IMG/VR virus record: IMGVR_UViG_3300016667_000188
Location: 9,026 to 73,025 of that record
Reading direction: 5' to 3' (one strand)
Origin: a virus
Length of the DNA: 64,000 nucleotides
Shown here piece after piece: positions 8,489-52,028 of this stretch. Made by a program: the position numbers and the translations under genes. The notes under the pieces are model-generated. The model had not been told where the DNA came from. It searched no databases and saw only the letters and a program-made list of their open reading frames with translations. Position 1 is the first letter of the stretch; each line of letters starts with the position of its first letter.

Positions 8489-9916
8489 ATGAAATATAAA
8501 TTGATTTTACAAGGGTCTAATGATGTGAAACAAGTCATGATGTATGACCCAATGACTTCTGAAGTGTTTTGGGAAGAGACTGGCGAACGACCATCTCTAG
8601 AGCATATTGGCAAAGACGCTGTTTACAAGATTGAAGAGCAGAACTGGATTGCTGCTAAAGTCACTAATCCAAAAGACCCAGAGCTTCATGGGCGAAAAAG
8701 TAAAAAAGTTTCTACACTAAAGATCACGATGGGTCTTAAGTGTAACTTTGCTTGTTCTTATTGCAACCAAGCGCATCAACCACATGATCCAGTTGGTGGT
8801 CCTGAAGATGCTGAAGCGTTGATCCAAAGTATCAAAAAGAATCTAACAGTTGATCCTATAGATCCTATCAGAATCGAGTTCTGGGGTGGAGAGCCATTTG
8901 TTTATTGGAAAACTCTAAAGCCACTAGCTGAAAAGGTTAGACGAGCATATCCGATGGCAACATTCAACATTATCACTAATGGTTCTTTGCTAGATCGCCA
9001 TAAAGTTGATTGGTTGTATCGAATGAACTTTAATGTTGGTATCTCTCACGATGGACCACTACACGCCCAAAATCGTGGTCCAGATCCACTAGATGATTTA
9101 ACTATGAGAGATGGAATCATCTATGCACTTAAGAAATTGGGACCAAATAGAGTTGGGTTTAACTCAGTTCTCACGAAAGAAAATGTCTCATTGGTAGCTG
9201 TTAAGCAGTTTATTTCTAAGAAATTGAACGGCGCAATCCCAGACGATCATATTATCGTCAATACAGAAGAACTCTTACTACCATACGATGCCTCTGGATT
9301 AACTCACTCTATTTCAAACTCAGATGAGGCTAAAGAGGCTATCCATAGTGTTTTCTGGGAGACTATTACTGGCGCAAATTACTTTAGCAATACAGTAACG
9401 CAAAAGGTTAAAAACTTCTTTTCTTCTATTTCTGAACAGCGCCCAGCAAAAATTCTAGGACAGAAATGCGGTATGGATCGTGAGGATATCTTAGCGATCG
9501 ATATGAAGGGTAATGCAACAACTTGCCAAAATACATCTTCTTTAACGAAACACAATATCGGTAATATTGAAGATGTAGATGCTATCCGTCTGCATACATC
9601 ACATCACTGGAGCACACGTGAGGAATGTCCTAATTGCCCAGTACTGCAACTTTGTATGGGTTCTTGCTTGTTCTTAGAAGATGATCTCTGGAAAGCTGGA
9701 TGTGAAAATATGTTCACGTGGAACTTGGCATTGCTTGCCGCAGCTTTGTTTATTATGACAGACGGTCTAGTGCTCGTTGAAATACAGGGACAGAAGATCC
9801 GCTATGACGACGTAACCTCTGTCCCTGTAATTGACATTGAATTTGTCAAGAGCAACGGAACTAAAAAGTCCTGGAAGGTTAGAAAACCTGTAGGAATTCC
9901 TGTTGTAGCTGCTTAA
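8489..9916 (+). CDS. radical SAM enzyme with SPASM-type C-terminal Cys cluster (peptide/protein-modifying maturase-like)
   Basis: CNFACSYC (CxxxCxxC) at about residue 86. Distal cluster CQNTSS...CPNCPVLQLCMGSC. About 85-aa N-terminal and about 100-aa C-terminal extensions. Confidence 0.75.
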   Translation: MKYKLILQGSNDVKQVMMYDPMTSEVFWEETGERPSLEHIGKDAVYKIEEQNWIAAKVTNPKDPELHGRKSKKVSTLKITMGLKCNFACSYCNQAHQPHDPVGGPEDAEALIQSIKKNLTVDPIDPIRIEFWGGEPFVYWKTLKPLAEKVRRAYPMATFNIITNGSLLDRHKVDWLYRMNFNVGISHDGPLHAQNRGPDPLDDLTMRDGIIYALKKLGPNRVGFNSVLTKENVSLVAVKQFISKKLNGAIPDDHIIVNTEELLLPYDASGLTHSISNSDEAKEAIHSVFWETITGANYFSNTVTQKVKNFFSSISEQRPAKILGQKCGMDREDILAIDMKGNATTCQNTSSLTKHNIGNIEDVDAIRLHTSHHWSTREECPNCPVLQLCMGSCLFLEDDLWKAGCENMFTWNLALLAAALFIMTDGLVLVEIQGQKIRYDDVTSVPVIDIEFVKSNGTKKSWKVRKPVGIPVVAA

Positions 9917-40484: not shown

Positions 40485-40505
40485 TACCCTACTGCAAGTA
40501 GGGTA
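40485..40505 (+). terminator. PeSL-like stem-loop TACCCTACT-gca-AGTAGGGTA abutting the -35 box
   Basis: 9-bp perfect stem preceded by cttt. Part of the AAAGTATTAC-leader cassette. Confidence 0.6.
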
Positions 40506-40533
40506 TTGACTTTTCGACAGATTGATGTATAAT
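40506..40533 (+). promoter_or_regulatory. early promoter TTGACT-N16-TATAAT
   Basis: ttgacttttcgacagattgatgtataat. Confidence 0.7.
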
Positions 40534-40764: not shown

Positions 40765-41070
40765 ATGAAAAAACTTTTTGTTATGATGTTGGTTATTGCA
40801 ATGTCTTCTGCTGTCTATGCTAAAGGTGGTGGCGGCGGTGGCGGTGGTCATGGAGGCGGTGGCGGACACGCTAGTTCTTCTGGTCACTCCAGTTCTTCTA
40901 GCCATGCTAGTTCTTCTGGTGGTGGTAAGGGCACATCGAGTGGTAAGAGTGCATCTGTTGCACCTGAGCCTAGTCGTTCCAATACTTCAAGTAGTTGGTT
41001 CCCTTGGTTTGGTGGAGGTGGATCTAAAGGATCTTCTGAAGAAAAGTGTAAGAAAGAAAAAACCTGTTAA
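40765..41070 (+). CDS. secreted Gly/Ser/His-rich small protein (signal peptide MKKLFVMMLVIAMSSAVYA)
   Basis: N-terminal signal peptide followed by G8HG5H...SSS low-complexity sequence and a C-terminal CKKEKTC. Confidence 0.5.
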   Translation: MKKLFVMMLVIAMSSAVYAKGGGGGGGGHGGGGGHASSSGHSSSSSHASSSGGGKGTSSGKSASVAPEPSRSNTSSSWFPWFGGGGSKGSSEEKCKKEKTC

Positions 41071-41130: not shown

Positions 41131-42105
41131 ATGAAAACTGGTATCTTCATTGGGCGTTTCCAGCCCGTACATCACGGTCACATCCATGCACTCGGAGTGG
41201 CTGCATCCCAAGTAAATAAACTTTACATCCTCGTAGGCTCGGCTAACGCATGCCGAAGTATTAAGAATCCTTGGACTTTTGATGAGCGTAAGCAGATGCT
41301 GGCTCTCAAACTGCATGCCGAGAGAATCACAAACTACGAAATTATTCCACTCAACGACTATCGTTACAGCGATACGCAATGGATGTCTGACGTCCGTGCC
41401 ACTATCGAACACTACAACATGGGCTCACCGATTCTGTTCGGTCACATCAAAGAAGGTAATGATTACCTGAAGTGGTTCCCTGAATTAAAATTTAAGAGCA
41501 TTGAGGCTCAATATAATATCGATGCAACTCACATTCGTGAGGAGATGTTTAAGAATGACGACCCTCTGATGCCAGAAACTGTCCGAGGCGACTATGCTTT
41601 CTACCAAAAAGAAAAACAACTCTTCAAAGATTATCCATTCCCCGAAACTCTCAACTTCAATTGCTCTGATGCGATCCTCGAATGCCAAGGACATGTGCTT
41701 CTCATCCAACGCAAGTTCAGTCCAGGTCGAGGTGCTTGGGCACTTCCAGGAGGTTTTCGCAACCAGCGTGAAACATTTCTTGACTGTGCCATCCGAGAGT
41801 TGATTGAAGAAACTAACGTGCGAGTCCCTGAGAAAGTTCTCCGTGGCTCTATCGTGAAAACCGAATTGTTCGACAGTCCTCGTCGTTCGTTCGGTATTCC
41901 CCGAAACACCATGGCTGTGTACATGCGTATTAGTCCGAATCCTGACTACTCGCTGCCTCGTGCTAATGGTGCTGACGATGCTGCTCTGTGCAAGTGGGTG
42001 CCACTTACTGACGCACTGAACAACATCGAGATGTATGATGACCACAAGGACATCATTTCTAAAGTAACAGGTGTTATGTCAATGCCTGCATTTGCAAAAC
42101 TGTAA
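41131..42105 (+). CDS. natV: bifunctional NMN adenylyltransferase / Nudix hydrolase (NadM-Nudix, KVP40 NatV-like)
   Basis: N-terminal GRFQPVHHGH nucleotidyltransferase motif. C-terminal Nudix box GGFRNQRETFLDCAIRELIEETNV. Confidence 0.8.
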   Translation: MKTGIFIGRFQPVHHGHIHALGVAASQVNKLYILVGSANACRSIKNPWTFDERKQMLALKLHAERITNYEIIPLNDYRYSDTQWMSDVRATIEHYNMGSPILFGHIKEGNDYLKWFPELKFKSIEAQYNIDATHIREEMFKNDDPLMPETVRGDYAFYQKEKQLFKDYPFPETLNFNCSDAILECQGHVLLIQRKFSPGRGAWALPGGFRNQRETFLDCAIRELIEETNVRVPEKVLRGSIVKTELFDSPRRSFGIPRNTMAVYMRISPNPDYSLPRANGADDAALCKWVPLTDALNNIEMYDDHKDIISKVTGVMSMPAFAKL

Positions 42106-42121
42106 ACGATTAGGATCGTGT

Positions 42122-42415
42122 ATGAACGAACGAATTCAAGAACTTGCTCGTCAGTCTGGTGCATATCATAAAGATGACGACGGTGAAGAAACTAAGATTG
42201 CTGTTCTAATAGGTAAGGAAGTAGAAAAGTTCGCCGAGTTGATTGTTCGGGAATGTATGGAACTTAATAGAAAACAATCCTGGGATCTTACTGGTGTGAT
42301 TATTGATGTTGAAGAAAGCACTGGTTTTGACGAAGTGTGTATGAATACTGTAAAACGAGTAAAGAATTATCTAGCAGGCGATGACTTGCTAAAACATTTT
42401 GGAGTTGAAGAATGA
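42122..42415 (+). CDS. small protein, MNERIxELA/EKFAELIVREC family member A
   Basis: Paralogous to 43003, 43203, 43540 and 43999. Ends in HFGVEE. Confidence 0.5.
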   Translation: MNERIQELARQSGAYHKDDDGEETKIAVLIGKEVEKFAELIVRECMELNRKQSWDLTGVIIDVEESTGFDEVCMNTVKRVKNYLAGDDLLKHFGVEE

Positions 42416-42609
42416 TTTTGAAGTATTTTAGAGAACAAATTGAAGGTGGTGCTACAGATAACTTTTTCTATGGCACTGAAATGAATGGTGAAGTTCGCAT
42501 TGAGCGTCATCGTGGTAGTCTTGACTCATTCCCCACTGATCTAAAATTTACGAGAATGGTAGGAAGTGTTCCGTTCTTTACTCAAGAACATTTCGGAGTT
42601 GAAGAATGA
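42412..42609 (+). CDS. small protein ending in EHFGVEE
   Basis: 65 aa. The body is unrelated to the family, but it shares the junction cassette. Confidence 0.4.
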   Translation: MILKYFREQIEGGATDNFFYGTEMNGEVRIERHRGSLDSFPTDLKFTRMVGSVPFFTQEHFGVEE

Positions 42610-42833
42610 ACGCTAAAAGAGGTCTACCCCTGGAAAGCATTGCGACAGACCCTGTAAGAATGCGAGCGAGATGTGAAGCATTGGTAATTGCTATGGTAGG
42701 CAAAGATATGGCTGAGAAATGGTGGAATGGCCCAAACAAGGCATTTTGTGATGACACACCAGAACAGATTTATAGTGTAGCACCCAGTGCGGTGTATGCT
42801 TATCTAATGCGATCAGCCGAAGGAGAATGGTAA
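42606..42833 (+). CDS. DUF2384-like (ParS/MbcA/Xre-type RES-toxin antitoxin C-terminal domain) orphan protein
   Basis: AEKWWNGPNKAFCDDTPEQIYSVAPSAVYAYLMRSAEGEW fits the A..WL..PN.AL.G.TP......G...V...L.R...G signature. Recognised from memory, with no search run. Confidence 0.45.
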   Translation: MNAKRGLPLESIATDPVRMRARCEALVIAMVGKDMAEKWWNGPNKAFCDDTPEQIYSVAPSAVYAYLMRSAEGEW

Positions 42834-43006
42834 TGAACCAACGTAAAGTTCACTACATTGATGTGAGCAAAATGTCCGAAAAAGAACTATGTGAAACATT
42901 GAACATTCCATATGTTCCGTGGTATTGTGATAGTATCTTTTGGGCATTGGCACTGGTTTTTACTGCGCCCAGTATCCTGATTATTACTTTGGAGATATTC
43001 AAATGA
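42833..43006 (+). CDS. small protein with hydrophobic C-terminus (57 aa)
   Basis: TAATG overlap upstream and ATGA overlap downstream. Confidence 0.35.
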   Translation: MNQRKVHYIDVSKMSEKELCETLNIPYVPWYCDSIFWALALVFTAPSILIITLEIFK

Positions 43007-43206
43007 ACAAACGAATTAAAGAACTGCAGTTTCAAGCTGCCGCACAAGTTAATCCGTTGTTGGAAGGTTCTGAGTGGCAACAAGTGTTTGTTGAGAATTT
43101 TGCCGAGTTGATTATCAAAGAAACACTACAGGTTGCTCGTGCTGGTATAGAGTTCGGCGACGGTATGGAAGATGCTGTTTACAAATATTTCGGAGTTGAA
43201 GAATGA
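43003..43206 (+). CDS. MNKRIKEL/FAELIIKE family member B (67 aa)
   Basis: Family motifs. Ends in YFGVEE. Confidence 0.45.
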   Translation: MNKRIKELQFQAAAQVNPLLEGSEWQQVFVENFAELIIKETLQVARAGIEFGDGMEDAVYKYFGVEE

Positions 43207-43448
43207 ACGAACGAATTAGAGAACTTGCTAGAGAGGCTGGGTTGCCTACATACAACCCCGAAGGTATTCCAACTAAATTAGAAAAGTTCGCCGAGTTGAT
43301 TGTTAGGGAATGTATTCGCATTGGCCAAGAAACCAGCAAAGATATTTTCAAAATGTCAAAGAAAGAAGGTGACATTTTTGAATATGAATCACACGGTGCA
43401 GAACAAGTAGTTGATAATATCAAAGAGCATTTTGGAGTTGAAAAATGA
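43203..43448 (+). CDS. MNERIRELA family member C (81 aa)
   Basis: MNERIRELAREAG..EKFAELIVRECI..EHFGVEK. Confidence 0.5.
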   Translation: MNERIRELAREAGLPTYNPEGIPTKLEKFAELIVRECIRIGQETSKDIFKMSKKEGDIFEYESHGAEQVVDNIKEHFGVEK

Positions 43449-43543
43449 GCATAAGCGAAACTATCGTCATACTTGCTATGATTTCACTGTTTGCCTTGGT
43501 TGCAGTGGGTGTATATAAGTTGATTGTAAAAGGTTTTCTATGA
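43445..43543 (+). CDS. 32-aa single-TM peptide (MSISETIVILAMISLFALVAVGVYKLIVKGFL)
   Basis: ATGA overlaps at both ends. Entirely hydrophobic. Confidence 0.35.
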   Translation: MSISETIVILAMISLFALVAVGVYKLIVKGFL

Positions 43544-43767
43544 ACGAACGAATTAAAGAACTTGCCCAACAGGCTGGATGCAGTATTGATGGAATGGGCT
43601 ATGGCGAAGGTAATGTAGAAAAGTTCGCCGAGTTGATTATTCGGGAATGTATTGGTTGTTGTGAACAAGTTATCAGTGATCCTGTTCCTGAATCCGTGGA
43701 TAGTTGGTTAAATGGTGGCGAACAATGTATCCAAGAGATTAAACAGCATTTTGGAGTTGAAAAATGA
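43540..43767 (+). CDS. MNERIKELA family member D (75 aa)
   Basis: MNERIKELAQQAG..EKFAELIIRECI..QHFGVEK. Confidence 0.5.
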   Translation: MNERIKELAQQAGCSIDGMGYGEGNVEKFAELIIRECIGCCEQVISDPVPESVDSWLNGGEQCIQEIKQHFGVEK

Positions 43768-44015
43768 AAGTTTCCAATCTACGCAAAATCACAGACCCAA
43801 CTACATTTGAACCAAGTGTAGTAGTAGATGTAGAAATCCCAAGAATGACCTTATACGAACTAACTCTAATGAAAGAGGACATTCGTAAAGACATTATCTA
43901 CACACTCGGAGCGGAGTTATTGGGACAGATTGTTGTTCAGATGGGTATGACTGATGAACAAAAGAAAGACCTAATCAAGGACTTGCTGGGAGTGAACAAT
44001 GACACCGAATCCTAA
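43764..44015 (+). CDS. hypothetical protein (83 aa)
   Basis: ORF coupled by ATGA. Confidence 0.4.
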   Translation: MKVSNLRKITDPTTFEPSVVVDVEIPRMTLYELTLMKEDIRKDIIYTLGAELLGQIVVQMGMTDEQKKDLIKDLLGVNNDTES

Positions 44016-44223
44016 AATCCGAGAACTCATTATGAGTATGGGCATTATTCCTGAAAGCGAACACTATGATATCGCTGAACGAGTTATTGAAGAATGTATG
44101 GCAATGTGTAAAACCGCTGTAGGCAACGCTGACTACAACACTGGCAGACTACATTGTTTAGAAAACATCAAAGAACACTTTGGAGTTAAACGATGGCACT
44201 TCGACAACTGCAAAGGTGCTTGA
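43999..44223 (+). CDS. family member E (IRELI..ERVIEECM..EHFGVKRWHFDNCKGA) with read-through of a degenerate junction
   Basis: The junction is mutated to GGAGTTAAACGATGG, so the usual stop is lost. Confidence 0.45.
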   Translation: MTPNPKIRELIMSMGIIPESEHYDIAERVIEECMAMCKTAVGNADYNTGRLHCLENIKEHFGVKRWHFDNCKGA

Positions 44224-44248
44224 CTTTTATTCAATAGTCAGGTATAAT
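44220..44248 (+). promoter_or_regulatory. early promoter TTGACT-N17-TATAAT upstream of the NAMPT gene
   Basis: ttgacttttattcaatagtcaggtataat. Confidence 0.65.
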
Positions 44249-44292
44249 TAACTTACTCCGAGACGGTCTTGGGGAATTTTTAGGAGCTAAAA

Positions 44293-45687
44293 ATGAGCAT
44301 TTCAAAATCAATCATTCTAAACACCGACAGCTATAAAGTTAGCATGTTCAAACAGTATCCTGCAGGTACGACTGGTGTTTATTCCTATATTGAATCACGT
44401 GGTGGACGCTATGATCGCACTGTGATGTTCGGTCTCCAAGCCTTCATTAAGGAGTATCTACTTGATCCAATTACCCAAGCCGACATTGATATTGCTGATG
44501 AGATACTCACTACTCACGGAGAACCCTTCAACCGAGAAGGATGGGAATATATCCTACGTGTCCACGATGGTTATCTCCCAGTCGTTATTCGTGCAGTTCC
44601 TGAGGGTACAGTGGTTCCTGTTAAAAATGTTTTGGCTACAATTGAAAACACGGATCCTGAATGCTATTGGTTGACTACTTATCTGGAAACTGCTCTTCTG
44701 CGTGCAGTCTGGTATCCAACCACTGTGGCTACTCAAAGCTACACCATTCGCAAAGTGATCATCGAATATCTGGAGAAAACTGGTGACCCTAGCCTTATTG
44801 ATTTCAAACTGCACGACTTCGGTGCTCGTGGCGTTTCTTCTATGGAAAGCGCAGGAATTGGCGGTGCTGCCCACTTGGTTAACTTCATGGGTACTGATAC
44901 CATCACTGGTCTTCTGTATGCTCGTGAGTATTACAATGCTGGTATTGCTGCTTTCTCTATCCCTGCCGCAGAACACAGTACCATCACCAGCTGGGGTCGT
45001 GACAACGAAGTAAAAGCCTATGACAACATGCTTACTCAGTTTGCTAAGCCTGGTAGTATCGTTGCAGTGGTCAGCGATAGCTATGATATCTTCAACGCTG
45101 CATCTAAACTCTGGGGTGAAGAACTCAAGCAGAAAGTTATTGATAGTGGCGCTACTATTGTCATCCGTCCAGACTCTGGCGATCCTGATACTGTTTGCCG
45201 TAAACTTGTAGAAATTCTCGGTCAAAAGTTCGGTTACACTACTAACGACAAAGGATACAAGGTTCTGAACAACGTCCGCATTATCCAAGGTGACGGTGTG
45301 AATGAACAAACTATCCGCACTATCCTTGGTGGCTTTGCTGCTTACGGTTGGTCTGCTGACAACATTGCTTTCGGTATGGGTGGTGCTCTACTGCAACAAG
45401 TCGATCGTGACACTCAGAAGTTCGCAATGAAGTGTTCTGCTGCTCTGATCAACGGTGAGTGGGTGGATGTGCAAAAAGATCCTGTCACTGACGCTGGTAA
45501 GAAGTCTAAAGCAGGTCGTGTGCAACTTTGGGAAAGTGGTGGTGAGTTTATCTCTTCTGTCACTCGTCCTAATACTTGGACTGATCGTGGCTTTGCATGG
45601 GCTCCAGCGTTGCAAGAAGTGTTCCGTGACGGTAAACTTGTAACCGAGTACACCTTCGAGCAAGTCCGAGCCAACGCCAAAAAGTAA
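44293..45687 (+). CDS. nadV: nicotinamide phosphoribosyltransferase (NAMPT, KVP40 NadV-like)
   Basis: 464 aa with a NAMPT-like length and composition (e.g. GTDTITGL, FGMGGALLQ segments). Paired with the NMNAT-Nudix gene. Confidence 0.75.
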   Translation: MSISKSIILNTDSYKVSMFKQYPAGTTGVYSYIESRGGRYDRTVMFGLQAFIKEYLLDPITQADIDIADEILTTHGEPFNREGWEYILRVHDGYLPVVIRAVPEGTVVPVKNVLATIENTDPECYWLTTYLETALLRAVWYPTTVATQSYTIRKVIIEYLEKTGDPSLIDFKLHDFGARGVSSMESAGIGGAAHLVNFMGTDTITGLLYAREYYNAGIAAFSIPAAEHSTITSWGRDNEVKAYDNMLTQFAKPGSIVAVVSDSYDIFNAASKLWGEELKQKVIDSGATIVIRPDSGDPDTVCRKLVEILGQKFGYTTNDKGYKVLNNVRIIQGDGVNEQTIRTILGGFAAYGWSADNIAFGMGGALLQQVDRDTQKFAMKCSAALINGEWVDVQKDPVTDAGKKSKAGRVQLWESGGEFISSVTRPNTWTDRGFAWAPALQEVFRDGKLVTEYTFEQVRANAKK

Positions 45688-45795: not shown

Positions 45796-45963
45796 ATGTG
45801 GAGTGATTTTAGTGACTACGAACTAGCCGAACTGGCTGGTCGCTATGGGTTGGAAGACAACCTAGTTTTTGATTATGAACTCAGTCTTGCAAATCGTGAC
45901 GAGATTGAGAAACTGTTGACTGAATTTGAATGGGAGATTGCAAATGCAGAACGTAGCATCTGA
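45796..45963 (+). CDS. small acidic ORF (55 aa)
   Basis: GGAG RBS. Overlaps the VWA gene start by 20 nt. Confidence 0.3.
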   Translation: MWSDFSDYELAELAGRYGLEDNLVFDYELSLANRDEIEKLLTEFEWEIANAERSI

Positions 45964-48133
45964 TCTTAGCGCACGACTGTTGGCAACAGAAAATCTTTCT
46001 GTTGTTCGTGCCAAAGCGATTACTGCATCTTTCGATATCAAGTCACGTGTGTTGACTCTGCCACTGTGGAAAGATATGACTCCCGAGATCGAAGACATGC
46101 TCATCGGTCACGAAGTCGGTCACGCACTCTACACTGGCGTAGAGTATATGACTCCGATTATGGAAAATCCTAAGCTGAAGTCTTATATGAACGTGTTGGA
46201 AGACGTTCGTATCGAAAAGCTGATGAAGCGCAAGTATCCTGGAATTCGTAAGCGTATGAACGAAGGATACAAACAACTCAATGAGCGTGACTTTTTTGGC
46301 GTCAAAGCCATTCAAGACTTCAATGAATTGCTGCTGATTGACCGCATCAACCTGTACTTCAAAGTTGGTTTTGAATGTGGTGTTAAATTCACACCAGAGG
46401 AAAAGGCGTTTGTCAATCGTGCAGAACGCACTGAGACTATGGAAGAAATTATCCAGCTGGCTCAGGACATCTACGCCTACTCCAAAGAACAAGCTGAAGA
46501 ACGTCGTAAGCAACGTATGGAAGCTGGTGAAGATGTTGAAGAAGGCGATGACTTGGATGACCCAATCACTGGCGACTTTGACATTGATGACTTTGATGAT
46601 TTTGATGAAGACGAAGATGCTAGTGACGATAAGCTAAAATCTTCTAAGTCTGGCTCCAACAAAGAAAATGATGATGCTGCTTCTGACGACCAAGAGGAAG
46701 ACCTAGAGGCGAAGACTGATCGTGTTTTCCAGAAACGTCTGGAAGAATTGGCTGACGATTCTACAGAGTATCTGTACTGGAAGTTTGACACTAACTATTT
46801 CGAAGATCCTGTTGTTGGTTACAAAACCATCCTGAAAGAAACTAAGTCTGTGCATGAGTGGAATGCAGATCTGTATCAAGCGAACGACTACAAGACTCGC
46901 TATATGGACGAAGCGCAACGCAAGGAATTCTTTGGCACGTTCACTAAAGAATTCGATCAATTCAAAACCGATTCTATGCGCACGGTAAACTACCTTGTCA
47001 AAGAATTCGAGATGAAAAAGTCTGCACAACTTTACAAACGTGCTCAGGTTGCCAAAGTTGGCACTCTGGATATGCGTAAGGTTTGGGCTTACAAACTTCA
47101 GGAAGACTTGTTCAAGCGTGTGACTACCTTGCCGCAAGGTAAGAATCACGGTATGGTTATGCTGCTGGACTGGTCTGGTTCTATGGACAACGTGTTGCAG
47201 GACACTCTCAAGCAGGTGATCAACCTTGCTATGTTCTGCCAGCGTATCCAAGTGCCATATCGTGTCTATGCATTTACTACTGACTATAATAAAGATCTTT
47301 CTTATGAAGAACGTGTAGAACGTGATCGTAAGATTCGTGAGTACCGTGCAAAGTTTGGTGAGCAGAAAGATCTGCTGAGCAACACCCGAGGTTTCCATAT
47401 GCTGGAATTCTTCAACAACAAGATGTCTTCTGTGGAATTCAACGAGATGGCTCGTCGTCTGTTGGACTATCGTTTCCGTTGGAATGATGGTTACAGCACC
47501 AGTGGCACTCCGTTGAATGAGGCACTGGCATGGTGCTATCTCAATCTTGGTGACTTCATCAAGAAGCACAATCTGGAGAAGACTACATTCATCACTCTTA
47601 CTGATGGTGAAGGTGGTCAGTTGTCTGGTGATGGTCGTCGCCTAGATCCTGTCCGCAACGAATACGTTGATGGTAAGTATGTGCGCACCAAATTGCGCCA
47701 CTTTGTTCGTGACGATGTTACTAAGAAAACCTATGAGTTGGAAAATAACTCTGCGCAACAGACTGAAGCGATTCTGCGAATGATCAAAGATCGCCACGAT
47801 GTTCGCACTGTTGGTTTCTATATCTGCCGTAACCATCGTCGTGACCTTCAGTCTGTTATCGGTGCAAACCTTCCAGGTTATACTGGTAGTTCTGAAGTGC
47901 TGATTGAGAATTGGCGTAAACAATTCCGTGATCAAGACTTTGCTTCTGTGAAGAATACTGGTCGTGATGAATTGTTCCTGATCCCTCAATCTTCTACGAA
48001 GATCCAAGAGGGTGAACTTGAGGTCAAGTCTGATGCAAAAGCTGCTAGTATTGCTCGCAACTTTAGCAAATACTTGAATGTCAAGAAGACTTCTCGGGTG
48101 CTGCTGAATCGTTTTGTGGCTCTCGTAGCCTAA
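45944..48133 (+). CDS. von Willebrand factor A domain protein with N-terminal HExxH motif and acidic linker (CobT-like partner of the MoxR ATPase)
   Basis: HEVGH near residue 70. Asp-rich linker (DDLDDPITGDFDIDDFDDFDEDEDASDD). MIDAS motif VMLLDWSGSMD. Confidence 0.65.
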   Translation: MQNVASDLSARLLATENLSVVRAKAITASFDIKSRVLTLPLWKDMTPEIEDMLIGHEVGHALYTGVEYMTPIMENPKLKSYMNVLEDVRIEKLMKRKYPGIRKRMNEGYKQLNERDFFGVKAIQDFNELLLIDRINLYFKVGFECGVKFTPEEKAFVNRAERTETMEEIIQLAQDIYAYSKEQAEERRKQRMEAGEDVEEGDDLDDPITGDFDIDDFDDFDEDEDASDDKLKSSKSGSNKENDDAASDDQEEDLEAKTDRVFQKRLEELADDSTEYLYWKFDTNYFEDPVVGYKTILKETKSVHEWNADLYQANDYKTRYMDEAQRKEFFGTFTKEFDQFKTDSMRTVNYLVKEFEMKKSAQLYKRAQVAKVGTLDMRKVWAYKLQEDLFKRVTTLPQGKNHGMVMLLDWSGSMDNVLQDTLKQVINLAMFCQRIQVPYRVYAFTTDYNKDLSYEERVERDRKIREYRAKFGEQKDLLSNTRGFHMLEFFNNKMSSVEFNEMARRLLDYRFRWNDGYSTSGTPLNEALAWCYLNLGDFIKKHNLEKTTFITLTDGEGGQLSGDGRRLDPVRNEYVDGKYVRTKLRHFVRDDVTKKTYELENNSAQQTEAILRMIKDRHDVRTVGFYICRNHRRDLQSVIGANLPGYTGSSEVLIENWRKQFRDQDFASVKNTGRDELFLIPQSSTKIQEGELEVKSDAKAASIARNFSKYLNVKKTSRVLLNRFVALVA

Positions 48134-48177
48134 AACGAAAGTGTTACATTCTGTAAGTTGTTGATTTTACAGGGAAA

Positions 48178-48206
48178 ATAACCCTACTTTTTGTGGGGTT
48201 ATTTCC
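48178..48206 (+). terminator. stem-loop/terminator ATAACCCTAC-ttttt-GTGGGGTTAT
   Basis: 10-bp stem with one G-U pair. Confidence 0.6.
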
Positions 48207-48215
48207 AAAAAGTAG

Positions 48216-48243
48216 TTGACTTTTTTGCAGACTGATGTATAAT
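48216..48243 (+). promoter_or_regulatory. early promoter TTGACT-N16-TATAAT with TTTTTTGCAGACTGATG spacer
   Basis: Seen directly. Confidence 0.7.
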
Positions 48244-48265
48244 ATGTGTATGTTCTTGATTATGA

Positions 48266-49438
48266 ATGGAGTTTGTGATGAGTAAAGTTGACGCTGTGGT
48301 TCGTCGTGAGTTTGAGATCAAACTTGCTGAGATGTTTCCCGATACCCAAACATCTGGTCAGGTGACTCGCCCTCAACTGATTGAAGTTATGGGTGCGCTT
48401 AAGACCGAGAAATTCCCTCTGTGGCTTATGAAGAATAAAGTTGGTCGTGGTATTTACGCCATTGATGGTGGCAAGACTGCACCTGTTGTTGGCAATACTG
48501 CTCTGAAAGATGAACCTGTGGAATCTTACATCGTTGACTACACAAACGTAGAATCACTCATTCCTGTCAAAGACCCGAACTTTGTTCCCTTTGGAAACTT
48601 CACTGATCTTGAGAACATTATCAAGTCGGGTATCTTCTATCCCGCATACATCTCTGGTCCAACTGGTAACGGTAAGTCCACGATGGTCGAACAAATTTGT
48701 GCCAAGCACAAACGTCCTCTCATCCGTGTTAACCTTAACATGATGACTGATGAAGAACAACTTATCGGTTCCAAAACCCTACAGAATGGAAACGTAGAAG
48801 TTGTGGAAGGTCCAGTGCTGATTGCAATGCGTACTGGCACAACCTTGCTGCTTGACGAAATTGACGCTGGCTCTGCCAATACCTTGCTTTGCTTGCAACC
48901 GATTCTCGAAGGTAAACCCTACTATTTCAAACTCAAGAATGAGATGATCATTCCTGCCAAGGGTTTCAACATCTGTGCCACTGCCAACACTAAGGGTAAG
49001 GGTTCAGACGATGGTCGCTACATCGGTACTAACGTACTGAACGAAGCATTCTTGGAGCGTTTCGCTGTGACCTTCGAACAAGAGTATCCTTCAGCTAAGG
49101 TCGAAGTTAAAATTGTCCAGAATCTTATGGAATCTTACGGTTGTGCGGATGCCGAATTTGCAGAGACTCTCGTTAAGTGGGCTGATGCAATTCGTCGCAC
49201 ATTCGAAGATGGTGGTGTCGATGAGACGATTACGACTCGTCGTATGACTCACATCGTTCGTGCCTTTGCGATTTTCAAGAATCGTAACAAGGCTGTTGAA
49301 CTGTGTTGCAATCGTTTCGATTCTGCAACTAAGGATGCATTCCTGAAGTTGTACGATAACATTGCAAACCCTGCGCCTGAAGCACCACCTGTTGTAGAAG
49401 CGACTACTCCCTCTCCCTCGGAGGAAGTGCCCTTCTAA
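48266..49438 (+). CDS. cobS: MoxR-family AAA+ ATPase (phage CobS-like)
   Basis: Walker A GPTGNGKST and Walker B LLLDEIDA. Length and architecture are typical of phage 'cobS'. An alternative start lies at 48278. Confidence 0.75.
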   Translation: MEFVMSKVDAVVRREFEIKLAEMFPDTQTSGQVTRPQLIEVMGALKTEKFPLWLMKNKVGRGIYAIDGGKTAPVVGNTALKDEPVESYIVDYTNVESLIPVKDPNFVPFGNFTDLENIIKSGIFYPAYISGPTGNGKSTMVEQICAKHKRPLIRVNLNMMTDEEQLIGSKTLQNGNVEVVEGPVLIAMRTGTTLLLDEIDAGSANTLLCLQPILEGKPYYFKLKNEMIIPAKGFNICATANTKGKGSDDGRYIGTNVLNEAFLERFAVTFEQEYPSAKVEVKIVQNLMESYGCADAEFAETLVKWADAIRRTFEDGGVDETITTRRMTHIVRAFAIFKNRNKAVELCCNRFDSATKDAFLKLYDNIANPAPEAPPVVEATTPSPSEEVPF

Positions 49439-50775: not shown

Positions 50776-51156
50776 ATGTTTTTCTCAAAACAAAAAACCG
50801 AAGATGGTATCGTCGGCAACTACGCTGATGCACTAAAGCGCATCAAAGAACTTGAAGCTGAGGTCGAGCGACTGCAATATGCAAACAAGGCATATCAGAC
50901 TCGCCTCGTGGATGAGTATTCTAAGGCTAGTTACTCTGTTGATTTTGCCAAGATGAATGCGTTCTCGATTGAACGCCACTGGGATAATGGTACACAGAAA
51001 ACTATTATCGGATATATCCTTCAAGAGCCATTCTCAACTACTGAAGGAGAATACTCGACCAAAGATGTAGTTCGTGAATGGAATCTACTTTGCTCTCACG
51101 AAGAACATGAGCGACTGGTAAAACAATTTAATGATTATGTGAAAGGTGGTAAGTAA
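50776..51156 (+). CDS. hypothetical protein
   Basis: 126 aa. Confidence 0.4.
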   Translation: MFFSKQKTEDGIVGNYADALKRIKELEAEVERLQYANKAYQTRLVDEYSKASYSVDFAKMNAFSIERHWDNGTQKTIIGYILQEPFSTTEGEYSTKDVVREWNLLCSHEEHERLVKQFNDYVKGGK

Positions 51157-52028
51157 TGTTTATTTTTGGCGTAACTCTTATCTTGGCACTCCTTGCCGCA
51201 GGTGCTGCATTCTTTGTTAGCGAAAGTGTTCGTGGAGAAACTGTGCATCCTTTCCGCAGGTTCACTGTGCTCCCTCTTATTATCCCCGCTGTAGTTCTGG
51301 CATTTGAATGCTTCACGATTGTCCCTGCTGGTCACGTTGGCGTTCAAGTCACTATGGGTACTGTCAACCCAGTTGCTCTGCAAGCTGGTGTTAATTTTGT
51401 CAACCCAATTTCTAGCGTTCGTGATGTTGAGGTTCGTGTCAAACGAGCAGACCTGAAGGAAGCGCAAGCTGGTACTAAAGACCTACAATCGGTTCACACT
51501 GATATCGTTATCCAGTATCGTATGAGTCCCGATAAGGTTCCTACCATCTATAAAGAATTCGGTCTGAACGTAGATGACAAGATTCTTGGTCCAGGTGTTA
51601 ACGAGGCATTCAAAGCAGTGACTGCCCACTACAACTCTGAAGAACTGATCACCAAGCGTGACCAAGTTAGCACAGAGATTCTTAACCACGTTCGTGCTAA
51701 AGTTGCACCGTTCGATATCGAGATCCAAGGTATCAGTCTAGTGAACTTTGGTTTCTCTGCAGAATACCAGAAAGCTATCGAGCAGAAGGTCATCGCTACT
51801 CAACAAAAGCAGAAAGCCGAACAAGATCTGGAGCGTATCAAAGTTGAAGCACAACAGGCTATCGCTACTGCTGAAGGTCGTGCCAAAGCAATCCAGATTG
51901 AAACTCAGGCTATCAATAGTCAAGGTGGTGCAGCTTATGTCCAACTTGAAGCCATCAAGAAGTGGGATGGTAAACTGCCCCAATTCAACGGTAGCAATGC
52001 CGTACCTTTCATTAACGTAGGAAAATAA
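51156..52028 (+). CDS. SPFH/band-7 (prohibitin-like) membrane protein
   Basis: N-terminal TM helix followed by an SPFH domain (VPAGHVGVQV..., QKAEQDLERIKVEAQQAIATAEGRAKA). Confidence 0.75.
   Translation: MFIFGVTLILALLAAGAAFFVSESVRGETVHPFRRFTVLPLIIPAVVLAFECFTIVPAGHVGVQVTMGTVNPVALQAGVNFVNPISSVRDVEVRVKRADLKEAQAGTKDLQSVHTDIVIQYRMSPDKVPTIYKEFGLNVDDKILGPGVNEAFKAVTAHYNSEELITKRDQVSTEILNHVRAKVAPFDIEIQGISLVNFGFSAEYQKAIEQKVIATQQKQKAEQDLERIKVEAQQAIATAEGRAKAIQIETQAINSQGGAAYVQLEAIKKWDGKLPQFNGSNAVPFINVGK

Follow-up and report, generated by a model that had tools for sequence, protein, structure and literature searches.

MbcA of Mycobacterium tuberculosis (Rv1990c), NatR of Pseudomonas aeruginosa, Xre of the Pseudomonas putida RES-Xre pair and VPA0769 are antitoxins with a DUF2384 domain (Pfam PF09722) that control RES-domain NAD+ phosphorylases, and in all four cases the antitoxin gene adjoins that of the RES toxin. 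Xre and NatR also possess, at the N-terminus, a DNA-binding domain of the helix-turn-helix (HTH) type, whereas ParS of the Sphingobium ParST system (PDB 6D0H), encoded in a bacterial operon directly upstream of the RES toxin ParT, is an antitoxin of 72 amino acids (aa) consisting solely of the DUF2384 domain. In the published structures the C-terminus or the last helix of the antitoxin occupies the RES active site; ParS, MbcA and NatR each occlude the NAD+ site of their toxin, and every DUF2384 domain characterised so far binds an enzyme of the RES/ADP-ribosyltransferase (ART) fold (PMC7758455; PMC11535050). Here we report on a gene at positions 42606–42833 (+ strand) of a stretch of 64,000 nucleotides from an uncultured virus (IMG/VR record IMGVR_UViG_3300016667_000188, positions 9,026 to 73,025; hereafter, the window), which codes for a divergent relative of this domain. 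Unlike parS, the window gene is phage-borne and has no toxin partner, and the proteins share ~13–17% identity. The phage protein, moreover, has no HTH, the fused relatives carrying instead the hf domain described below or other N-terminal domains, and it shows residues of its own, namely a WW pair, N44, a YxY motif and a GEW end.

Two kinds of phage counter-defence are close to what we propose for this gene. On the one hand, stand-alone RES proteins called aRES, found in ~4% of prokaryotic genomes, defend the cell by converting NAD+ into ADP-ribose-1''-phosphate (ADPR-1''-P), and phages possess a small protein, aRad1, which blocks the RES pocket of aRES (Osterman et al., bioRxiv 10.64898/2026.01.28.702374). 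On the other hand, AdfN, a DarG-like NADAR protein, acts as an orphan-antitoxin counter-defence of T4-like phages (PMC11825919), and orphan antitoxins also occur in plasmid leading regions (PMC11541004). AdfN, T4 Dmd and the orphans of plasmid leading regions follow the logic considered here: the homologue of an antitoxin is present on a mobile element, the toxin is not, and a toxin-based defence of the host is thereby disarmed. Protein families and chemistry are instead different: AdfN acts enzymatically, taking ADP-ribose off DNA, while the window protein is a proposed stoichiometric binder.

The DUF2384-like gene and its family

The gene and its conserved part are located as follows:

42606–42833, + strand: DUF2384-like gene, 75 aa (open reading frame (ORF), close homologues, fold and profile matches, ratio of nonsynonymous to synonymous substitution rates (dN/dS))
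42660–42833, + strand: conserved domain core, M19–W75 (two family alignments)

The 75-aa ORF had been pointed out in a preliminary description of the window made from the nucleotide sequence; it does exist, and its C-terminal sequence is exactly as quoted there. Residues 1–18 are a variable tail modelled with low confidence, residues 19–75 form a conserved four-helix core closed by the conserved ...AEGEW, and no HTH domain was matched by Pfam in the protein; ParS likewise lacks the HTH, so this domain is not universal among the DUF2384 antitoxins. The core is the minimal form of the protein, occurring elsewhere in phages as a 57-aa stand-alone protein, and in the family alignments G32, W39, W40, N44, F47, P52, V63 and Y66 are invariant or nearly so. 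The start codon shares nucleotides with the stop of the upstream gene (ATGA) and is preceded by GGAG at a distance of 9 nt, the stop codon overlaps the next start (TAATG; TAA/ATG), and the gene is one link of a translationally coupled chain that extends from natV (41131) to 44223. The window covers 64 kb of a genome of ~170 kb and is part of an uncultured T4-like myovirus, with gp47/gp46, tail sheath, gp19, gp15, RegA, prohead protease, UvsY, gp45/gp44 and DNA ligase; its gp46 is ~50% identical to that of Methylophilales phage Melnitz and of marine cyanomyoviruses.

In metagenomes, 124 close homologues were found (68–99% identical, 57–120 aa), none of them annotated, and an exhaustive profile search gave 344 clusters at 50% identity, mostly stand-alone proteins of 57–80 aa. 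The median dN/dS over the 57-codon core was 0.118 at dS ~1.2 (99 pairs), indicating purifying selection, and the AlphaFold2 model showed four main helices, with a predicted local distance difference test score (pLDDT) of 79, rising to ~90 across the core, and a disordered N-terminal tail. The length of the C-terminal tail is also conserved: in a script-based pattern match over all the 267 family proteins collected, 120 close homologues included, 250 proteins matched, 171 of which have exactly 8 residues after the VYxYL-type motif, and 133 family proteins end with GEW. The small size and the absence of annotation in any library are what could be expected from a chance ORF or a decaying remnant devoid of function. 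We regard this as extremely improbable, considering the number of homologues and clusters, the low dN/dS at such a dS, the confident predicted fold and the coupled start and stop codons accompanied by a Shine-Dalgarno sequence; conservation and selection already refute this explanation. The DUF2384-like ORF is a genuine gene under constraint.

No match was obtained in 50,697 deposited phage genomes by megablast and tblastn with the region and two family members, so that cultured phages lack the family. A scan of 185,579 species genomes of bacteria and archaea, with patterns representing the close subfamily only, was equally negative. All the genomic contexts recovered for the family were phage-like, and in the collections searched the family is confined to phage sequence.

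Relationship to the DUF2384 antitoxin domain

The preliminary description had recognised the Xre/ParS/MbcA signature in the C-terminal part of the protein and had indicated a search with PF09722 as the way to check it. The window protein alone gave no PF09722 match at E ≤ 1 in a Pfam scan, and the PHROG scan was likewise without useful match. Other members of the family did, instead, give matches: PF09722 matches 26 of the 33 close homologues and, at E ≤ 0.01, 44 of the 145 distant family representatives (best 1.2e-5). In a sample of 10 members, PF09722 was the sole Pfam family matched, with scores of 17–24.5 bits; the curated gathering score of this family is 24.5 bits, a cut-off reached by one member, and this is the reason why no precomputed Pfam label exists.

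Two profile comparisons confirmed that the resemblance to the C-terminus of Xre, MbcA and ParS goes beyond chance. When the profile of the 145 representatives was compared with 177,635 PDB sequences, the top match was the Xre antitoxin of P. putida (6GW6_B, E 0.009), in an alignment covering the C-terminal toxin-binding residues 89–146 of Xre. Moreover, hhalign of the family against seven RES-associated antitoxins, four of which precede annotated RES NAD+ phosphorylases, gave a P-value of 9.5e-5 and a probability of 59%, in the same register as the 6GW6_B alignment; the reference antitoxin and RES sequences were drawn from plasmid records. Searching a large protein collection for relatives of the P. 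putida Xre fragment yielded only 4 near-identical fragments.

The motif G..A..W...P...F.G.TP....V..L....G sits at the extreme C-terminus of the protein, and the HMMER and hhalign registers agree on its position. G32, W39, P42, F47, T51-P52, V63, L67 and G73 align with the G, W, P, F, TP, V, L and G of Xre; the window protein ends 2 residues past G73 and Xre ends 3 past its Gly, the domain being at the extreme C-terminus in every alignment, as in Xre. One element of the motif first described does not hold, as the G three residues before the conserved V, present in the canonical domain, is replaced here by the sequence APSAV (Pro/Ser in the clade). The comparison of models that had been suggested was favourable, since the predicted helical fold can be superposed on the solved antitoxin domains. 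By contrast, the phage-clade invariants WW, N44, Y64/Y66 and C23 are absent from the bacterial antitoxins. Taken together, these data support a homology of the window protein, divergent and stand-alone, with the toxin-binding DUF2384 domain, a relationship which for the single sequence lies in the twilight zone and becomes significant only at the family level.

Search for a toxin partner

No RES (PF08808) or ADP-ribosyltransferase family was found by Pfam in 56 ORFs of the window (10 around the gene and 46 further ones), and a RES hidden Markov model (HMM), narrow in that it was built on four sequences from plasmid toxins, had no match in the six-frame ORFs of the window and of 34 homologue loci. 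Similarly, no RES family appeared among the precomputed Pfam annotations of the other contexts or in the selected neighbours scanned. The ORFs downstream of the DUF2384-like gene have 57–102 aa and no RES match, whereas the control plasmid loci show the canonical pair, in which the antitoxin is followed by a RES-domain toxin of ~150 aa. Since no RES or ART gene was found in the window or in ~40 related loci, the DUF2384-like gene is not part of a RES toxin–antitoxin system; as far as the data reach it is an orphan, as had been noticed from the immediate surroundings of the gene. Like the orphan antitoxins mentioned above, it is an antitoxin homologue carried by a phage without its toxin.

Two Pseudomonas plasmids (L039, 1210–1662; L041, 1207–1659) also carry MbcA/ParS/Xre genes with no adjacent RES gene listed in the PLSDB gene table, which is incomplete. 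They adjoin genes for LPD7-domain proteins and N6-methylases, and may be orphan antitoxins in plasmid anti-defence regions; unlike the phage protein, their products are full-length (150 aa), of bacterial type, and pass the annotation thresholds.

The immediate neighbours of the DUF2384-like gene in the window are two small ORFs:

42412–42609, + strand: hf2, 65 aa, sharing only the C-terminal HFGVEE with the hf family (tblastn; no Pfam or PHROG match)
42833–43006, + strand: small downstream ORF, 57 aa (start codon ATG at 42833), C-terminal segment hydrophobic

Either of them could be an unrecognised toxin, and the DUF2384-like gene would then be the antitoxin half of a phage-borne addiction pair. 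The tight translational coupling with both neighbours is in line with such a pair, and so are the recurrence of hf2, which adjoins the gene in ~8 close loci (L004, L006–L010, L014, L016), immediately upstream in six and just downstream in two more, and the hydrophobic C-terminus of the downstream ORF, like that of small membrane toxins. We consider this explanation unlikely: the downstream ORF, which has no Pfam match and is not RES-like, was seen only in the cassette of the window, being adjacent to the gene elsewhere only in L006; hf2 is absent from the more distant loci; neither neighbour resembles any known toxin family; and the canonical pairs that were examined have the toxin gene second, coding for a RES domain of ~150 aa.

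The NAD salvage context

In the window, the small genes lie between the two enzymes of the NARP2 pathway of NAD+ salvage:

40506–40533, + strand: strong sigma-70-like promoter, TTGACT-16-TATAAT, directly after a stem-loop at 40485–40505 (consensus scan)
41131–42105, + strand: natV, NatV-type bifunctional nicotinamide mononucleotide (NMN) adenylyltransferase/Nudix, NARP2 enzyme 2 (Pfam CTP_transf_like, NUDIX; PHROG 395, 3462)
44293–45687, + strand: nadV, NadV nicotinamide phosphoribosyltransferase, NARP2 enzyme 1 (Pfam NAMPT_N, NAPRTase; PHROG 448)
41400–44900, no strand: exchanged block of ~3.5 kb, 99–100% identical at the DNA level to IMGVR_UViG_3300016476_000468 (500-nt sliding identity)

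The first gene of the coupled array is natV, and the promoter at 40506–40533 is a candidate early promoter for the array from NatV to the small genes; nadV has a sigma-70-like promoter of its own (site 44220–44248, consensus scan). Both promoter regions (40485–40533 and 44220–44274) have 11/12 consensus positions in the form TTGACT-N16/17-TATAAT and adjoin a short GC stem-loop, an arrangement that resembles the units flanking mobile early-gene cassettes in T4-like phages.

The two flanking enzymes had been correctly identified in the preliminary description, as confirmed by Pfam and PHROG. Their presence around the gene had suggested a coherent second layer of defence, and this part of the proposal did not survive the comparison of loci. 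NadV or NatV was found within up to 10 kb of the DUF2384-like gene in only 1 of the 34 homologue loci (L006, with the same cassette as the window) and in none of the other 33. Conversely, we inspected 80 NARP2 loci whose NadV is 77–99% identical to that of the window, in most of which NatV abuts NadV or lies close to it, and a DUF2384-like ORF was present within 5 kb in three: L122, which has a window-type cassette with the gene between NatV and NadV, L131, and L173, in which the ORF is located ~1.4 kb downstream of NadV.

The block at 41400–44900 contains the 3' part of natV, the whole array of hf and DUF2384-like genes and the 5' half of nadV, and its flanks are 72–88% (5') and 90–96% (3') identical to the same record, which is that of locus L006. 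The 99–100% identity of the block against the less identical flanks indicates that the cassette was recently exchanged by homologous recombination, with break-points inside natV and nadV. The gene owes its position in the NARP2 locus to a cassette of small genes inserted in this lineage, and not to a conserved operon organisation; the DUF2384-like gene is not a conserved component of NARP2, and the NAD-salvage context is mostly not meaningful. The possibility of a conserved NARP2 accessory gene was rejected on these locus statistics.

A more specific role in NARP2 can be imagined, in which the protein would inhibit ParT-like RES toxins that ADP-ribosylate phosphoribosyl pyrophosphate (PRPP) synthetase, keeping PRPP available for NadV. 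ParT is known to modify the synthetase Prs (PMC7758455) and PRPP is required by NadV; the three independent juxtapositions with NARP2 (window/L122, L131, L173) are suggestive, and the recent exchange of the 3.5-kb cassette moved portions of both enzymes together with it. We judge this role very unlikely: the linkage in 3 of the 80 NARP2 loci and 1 of the 34 homologue loci is not above the rate expected by chance for one gene per ~170-kb genome, and most carriers show no NARP2 gene nearby.

The organisation of L131 (3149–6635) is worth describing separately. NatV is followed by a 172-aa Macro-like ORF (Pfam Macro, E 8e-4, below the cut-off), by NadV and, 18 nt after it, by the DUF2384-like gene, so that a Macro-like ORF is found inside a NARP2 locus beside a putative RES binder. 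A Macro phosphatase acting on ADPR-1''-P is the published anti-aRES add-on of NARP1.

The hf family and the fusion proteins

Five further genes of the array belong to one family, here called hf:

42119–42415, + strand: hf paralogue 1 (MNERIQELA...KFAELIVREC...HFGVEE; local HMM)
43000–43206, + strand: hf paralogue 3 (local HMM)
43203–43448, + strand: hf paralogue 4 (local HMM)
43540–43767, + strand: hf paralogue 5 (local HMM)
43999–44223, + strand: hf paralogue 6 (local HMM)

All five hf copies of the 64-kb window are located between NatV and NadV, on both sides of the DUF2384-like gene, and an hf gene lies within 1.5 kb of the DUF2384-like gene in 18 of 35 loci. The family comprises at least 7,897 clusters at 90% identity and has no match in Pfam, PHROGs or the PDB, by sequence or fold; the model of paralogue 5, with three helices and a beta-hairpin, gave no specific fold match. 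In the window and in loci L001–L016 the hf proteins are conserved at both ends (MNERIKELA at the N-terminus, HFGVEE at the C-terminus); between them lie a helix with the sequence KFAELIVREC and a hypervariable middle part. Both the Shine-Dalgarno sequence of the following gene and its ATGA overlap fall within the C-terminal codons, TTCGGAGTTGAAGAATGA; for this reason the conserved ends could have a further role as joints at which cassettes recombine and are shuffled.

Natural fusions between hf and the DUF2384-like domain were also found. P0132 is a 90% cluster of 83 members, from ENA, NCBI, JGI and Logan sources, in which 13 of the 15 proteins listed have 135 aa, and other fusions of this kind are P0215, P0142 and P0250. 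A second, unrelated N-terminal domain (..FN..ELYGLRSERFY....WL.AAF.EG..), of which neither the window nor the loci retrieved contain a copy, is fused in six clusters (P0141, P0199, P0205, P0222, P0252 and P0265). In P0241 the N-terminal fragment matches CDP-diacylglycerol pyrophosphatase (Pfam CDH, E 1e-9); this single-member cluster comes from a contig of 746 bp and may be an artefact of assembly or gene calling. Since N-terminal fusions mirror the architecture of the antitoxins, with an accessory domain at the N-terminus and the toxin binder at the C-terminus, they are no argument against RES binding.

The association with hf is at the basis of the main rival explanation, according to which the domain was re-purposed: it would bind a partner of neither RES nor ART type and work together with the hf proteins, for instance as a module of a phage early-protein complex acting on some other host process. 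The frequent vicinity of hf genes, the five copies flanking the gene in the window, the hf fusions, the second domain fused in six other clusters and the invariants that are absent from bacterial antitoxins all point in this direction. However, all five structurally characterised DUF2384 domains bind RES-fold toxins, the adjacency may merely mirror the abundance of hf in hyperplastic regions, and a second phage lineage (L017–L033) carries the DUF2384-like gene with quite different neighbours, mostly without hf. On balance, we consider a re-purposed domain rather doubtful, while giving it more weight than the other alternatives discussed above.

Proposed function

On the basis of homology, the single most likely function, which we put forward tentatively, would be that of an orphan inhibitor, derived from a DUF2384 antitoxin, of RES-domain enzymes of the host. 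The protein would be made early in infection, from an operon starting at or upstream of natV, and its target would be a NAD+-consuming RES-domain enzyme of the host with ADP-ribosyltransferase fold. The target could be a stand-alone aRES defence protein or, alternatively, a RES toxin that loses its labile antitoxin once the expression of host genes is shut off. The last helix and the C-terminal tail (...AEGEW-COOH) would plug the NAD+ pocket of the target, as ParS, MbcA and NatR do. The sequence and profile matches, the constrained tail at the extreme C-terminus, the orphan status, the confinement to phage sequence and the purifying selection speak for this function, and the precedents of aRES, of aRad1 and of orphan-antitoxin counter-defence make the idea plausible and timely.

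Several points weigh against such a function. The window protein itself is below every Pfam threshold, the relationship being visible at the family level only; the close subfamily is strongly conserved (68–99% identity), unlike many fast-evolving anti-defence proteins; and the consistent genomic partners are hf genes, with real fusions, which could point to a phage-internal partner. As a rule, antitoxins of type II act specifically on the toxin of their own pair, and the presence of a RES protein in the host is an assumption. Moreover, NARP2, but not NARP1, overcomes aRES (bioRxiv 10.64898/2026.01.28.702374); as NARP2 alone already cancels this defence, a pairing with the DUF2384-like gene is not needed against aRES, and the NARP2 link is partly redundant. 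Finally, the large AlphaFold 3 screen for aRES binders described in the same preprint (bioRxiv 10.64898/2026.01.28.702374) gave aRad1 and not the DUF2384-like family; in that screen, however, the families with an HHpred annotation were discarded and only one match was followed.

The job proposed for the DUF2384-like protein is like that of aRad1, a small phage protein that binds a RES domain and occludes its NAD+ pocket, and a conserved Trp is present in both. aRad1, however, blocks the pocket by a flexible internal loop, in contrast to the antitoxin-type C-terminal helix proposed here, and it has experimental support. The conserved Gly and Trp had made aRad1 a candidate member of the same family, which was ruled out by the visibly unrelated sequence of aRad1a (MQQYEIWSEGF..., Table S4 of the preprint); a phmmer search with aRad1a against all ORFs of the window and of the 34 loci gave a best E of 1.5. 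It is conceivable, though we would not expect it, that the phage-only family derived from antitoxins represents a second, evolutionarily independent class of inhibitors of RES immunity, acting by a C-terminal plug, spread by recombining cassettes and having the hf proteins as partner or adaptor modules.

Other genes of the window and of the homologue loci

Just upstream of natV, at 40765–41070, a 101-aa ORF shows a signal-peptide-like start and long Gly, Ser and His runs (MKKLFVMMLVIAMSSAVYAKGGGGGGGGHGGGGGH...). Downstream of nadV, the region at 45926–49438 codes for a protein of 735 aa, extensively acidic in one stretch and without Pfam match, and then for an AAA ATPase of MoxR/CbbQ type. A few kb from the DUF2384-like gene, loci L002 and L003 likewise have genes for an AAA protein and for a DUF2201 protein, similar to von Willebrand factor A (VWA) domains. 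The window also contains auxiliary genes unusual for a T4-like phage, namely two fatty-acid desaturase matches, rubrerythrin/ferritin-like proteins, Hsp20 and an SPFH/Band-7 protein (51156–52028).

Significance

Both the fold and the orphan-antitoxin logic are already known; the novelty lies in a large clade of the RES-antitoxin domain in phages, which had carried no label so far and has its own signature and fusion partners. It was not until 2026 that RES NAD+ phosphorylases were described as a defence against phages, and aRad1 is the only family of direct phage inhibitors described. If the proposed function is true, phages would have taken over an antitoxin domain from bacteria to neutralise RES domains, and RES-based immunity would be a selective pressure in aquatic phages and hosts never brought into culture. 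Moreover, hundreds of small phage proteins now called hypothetical would receive a function, and the larger hf family a first point of access.
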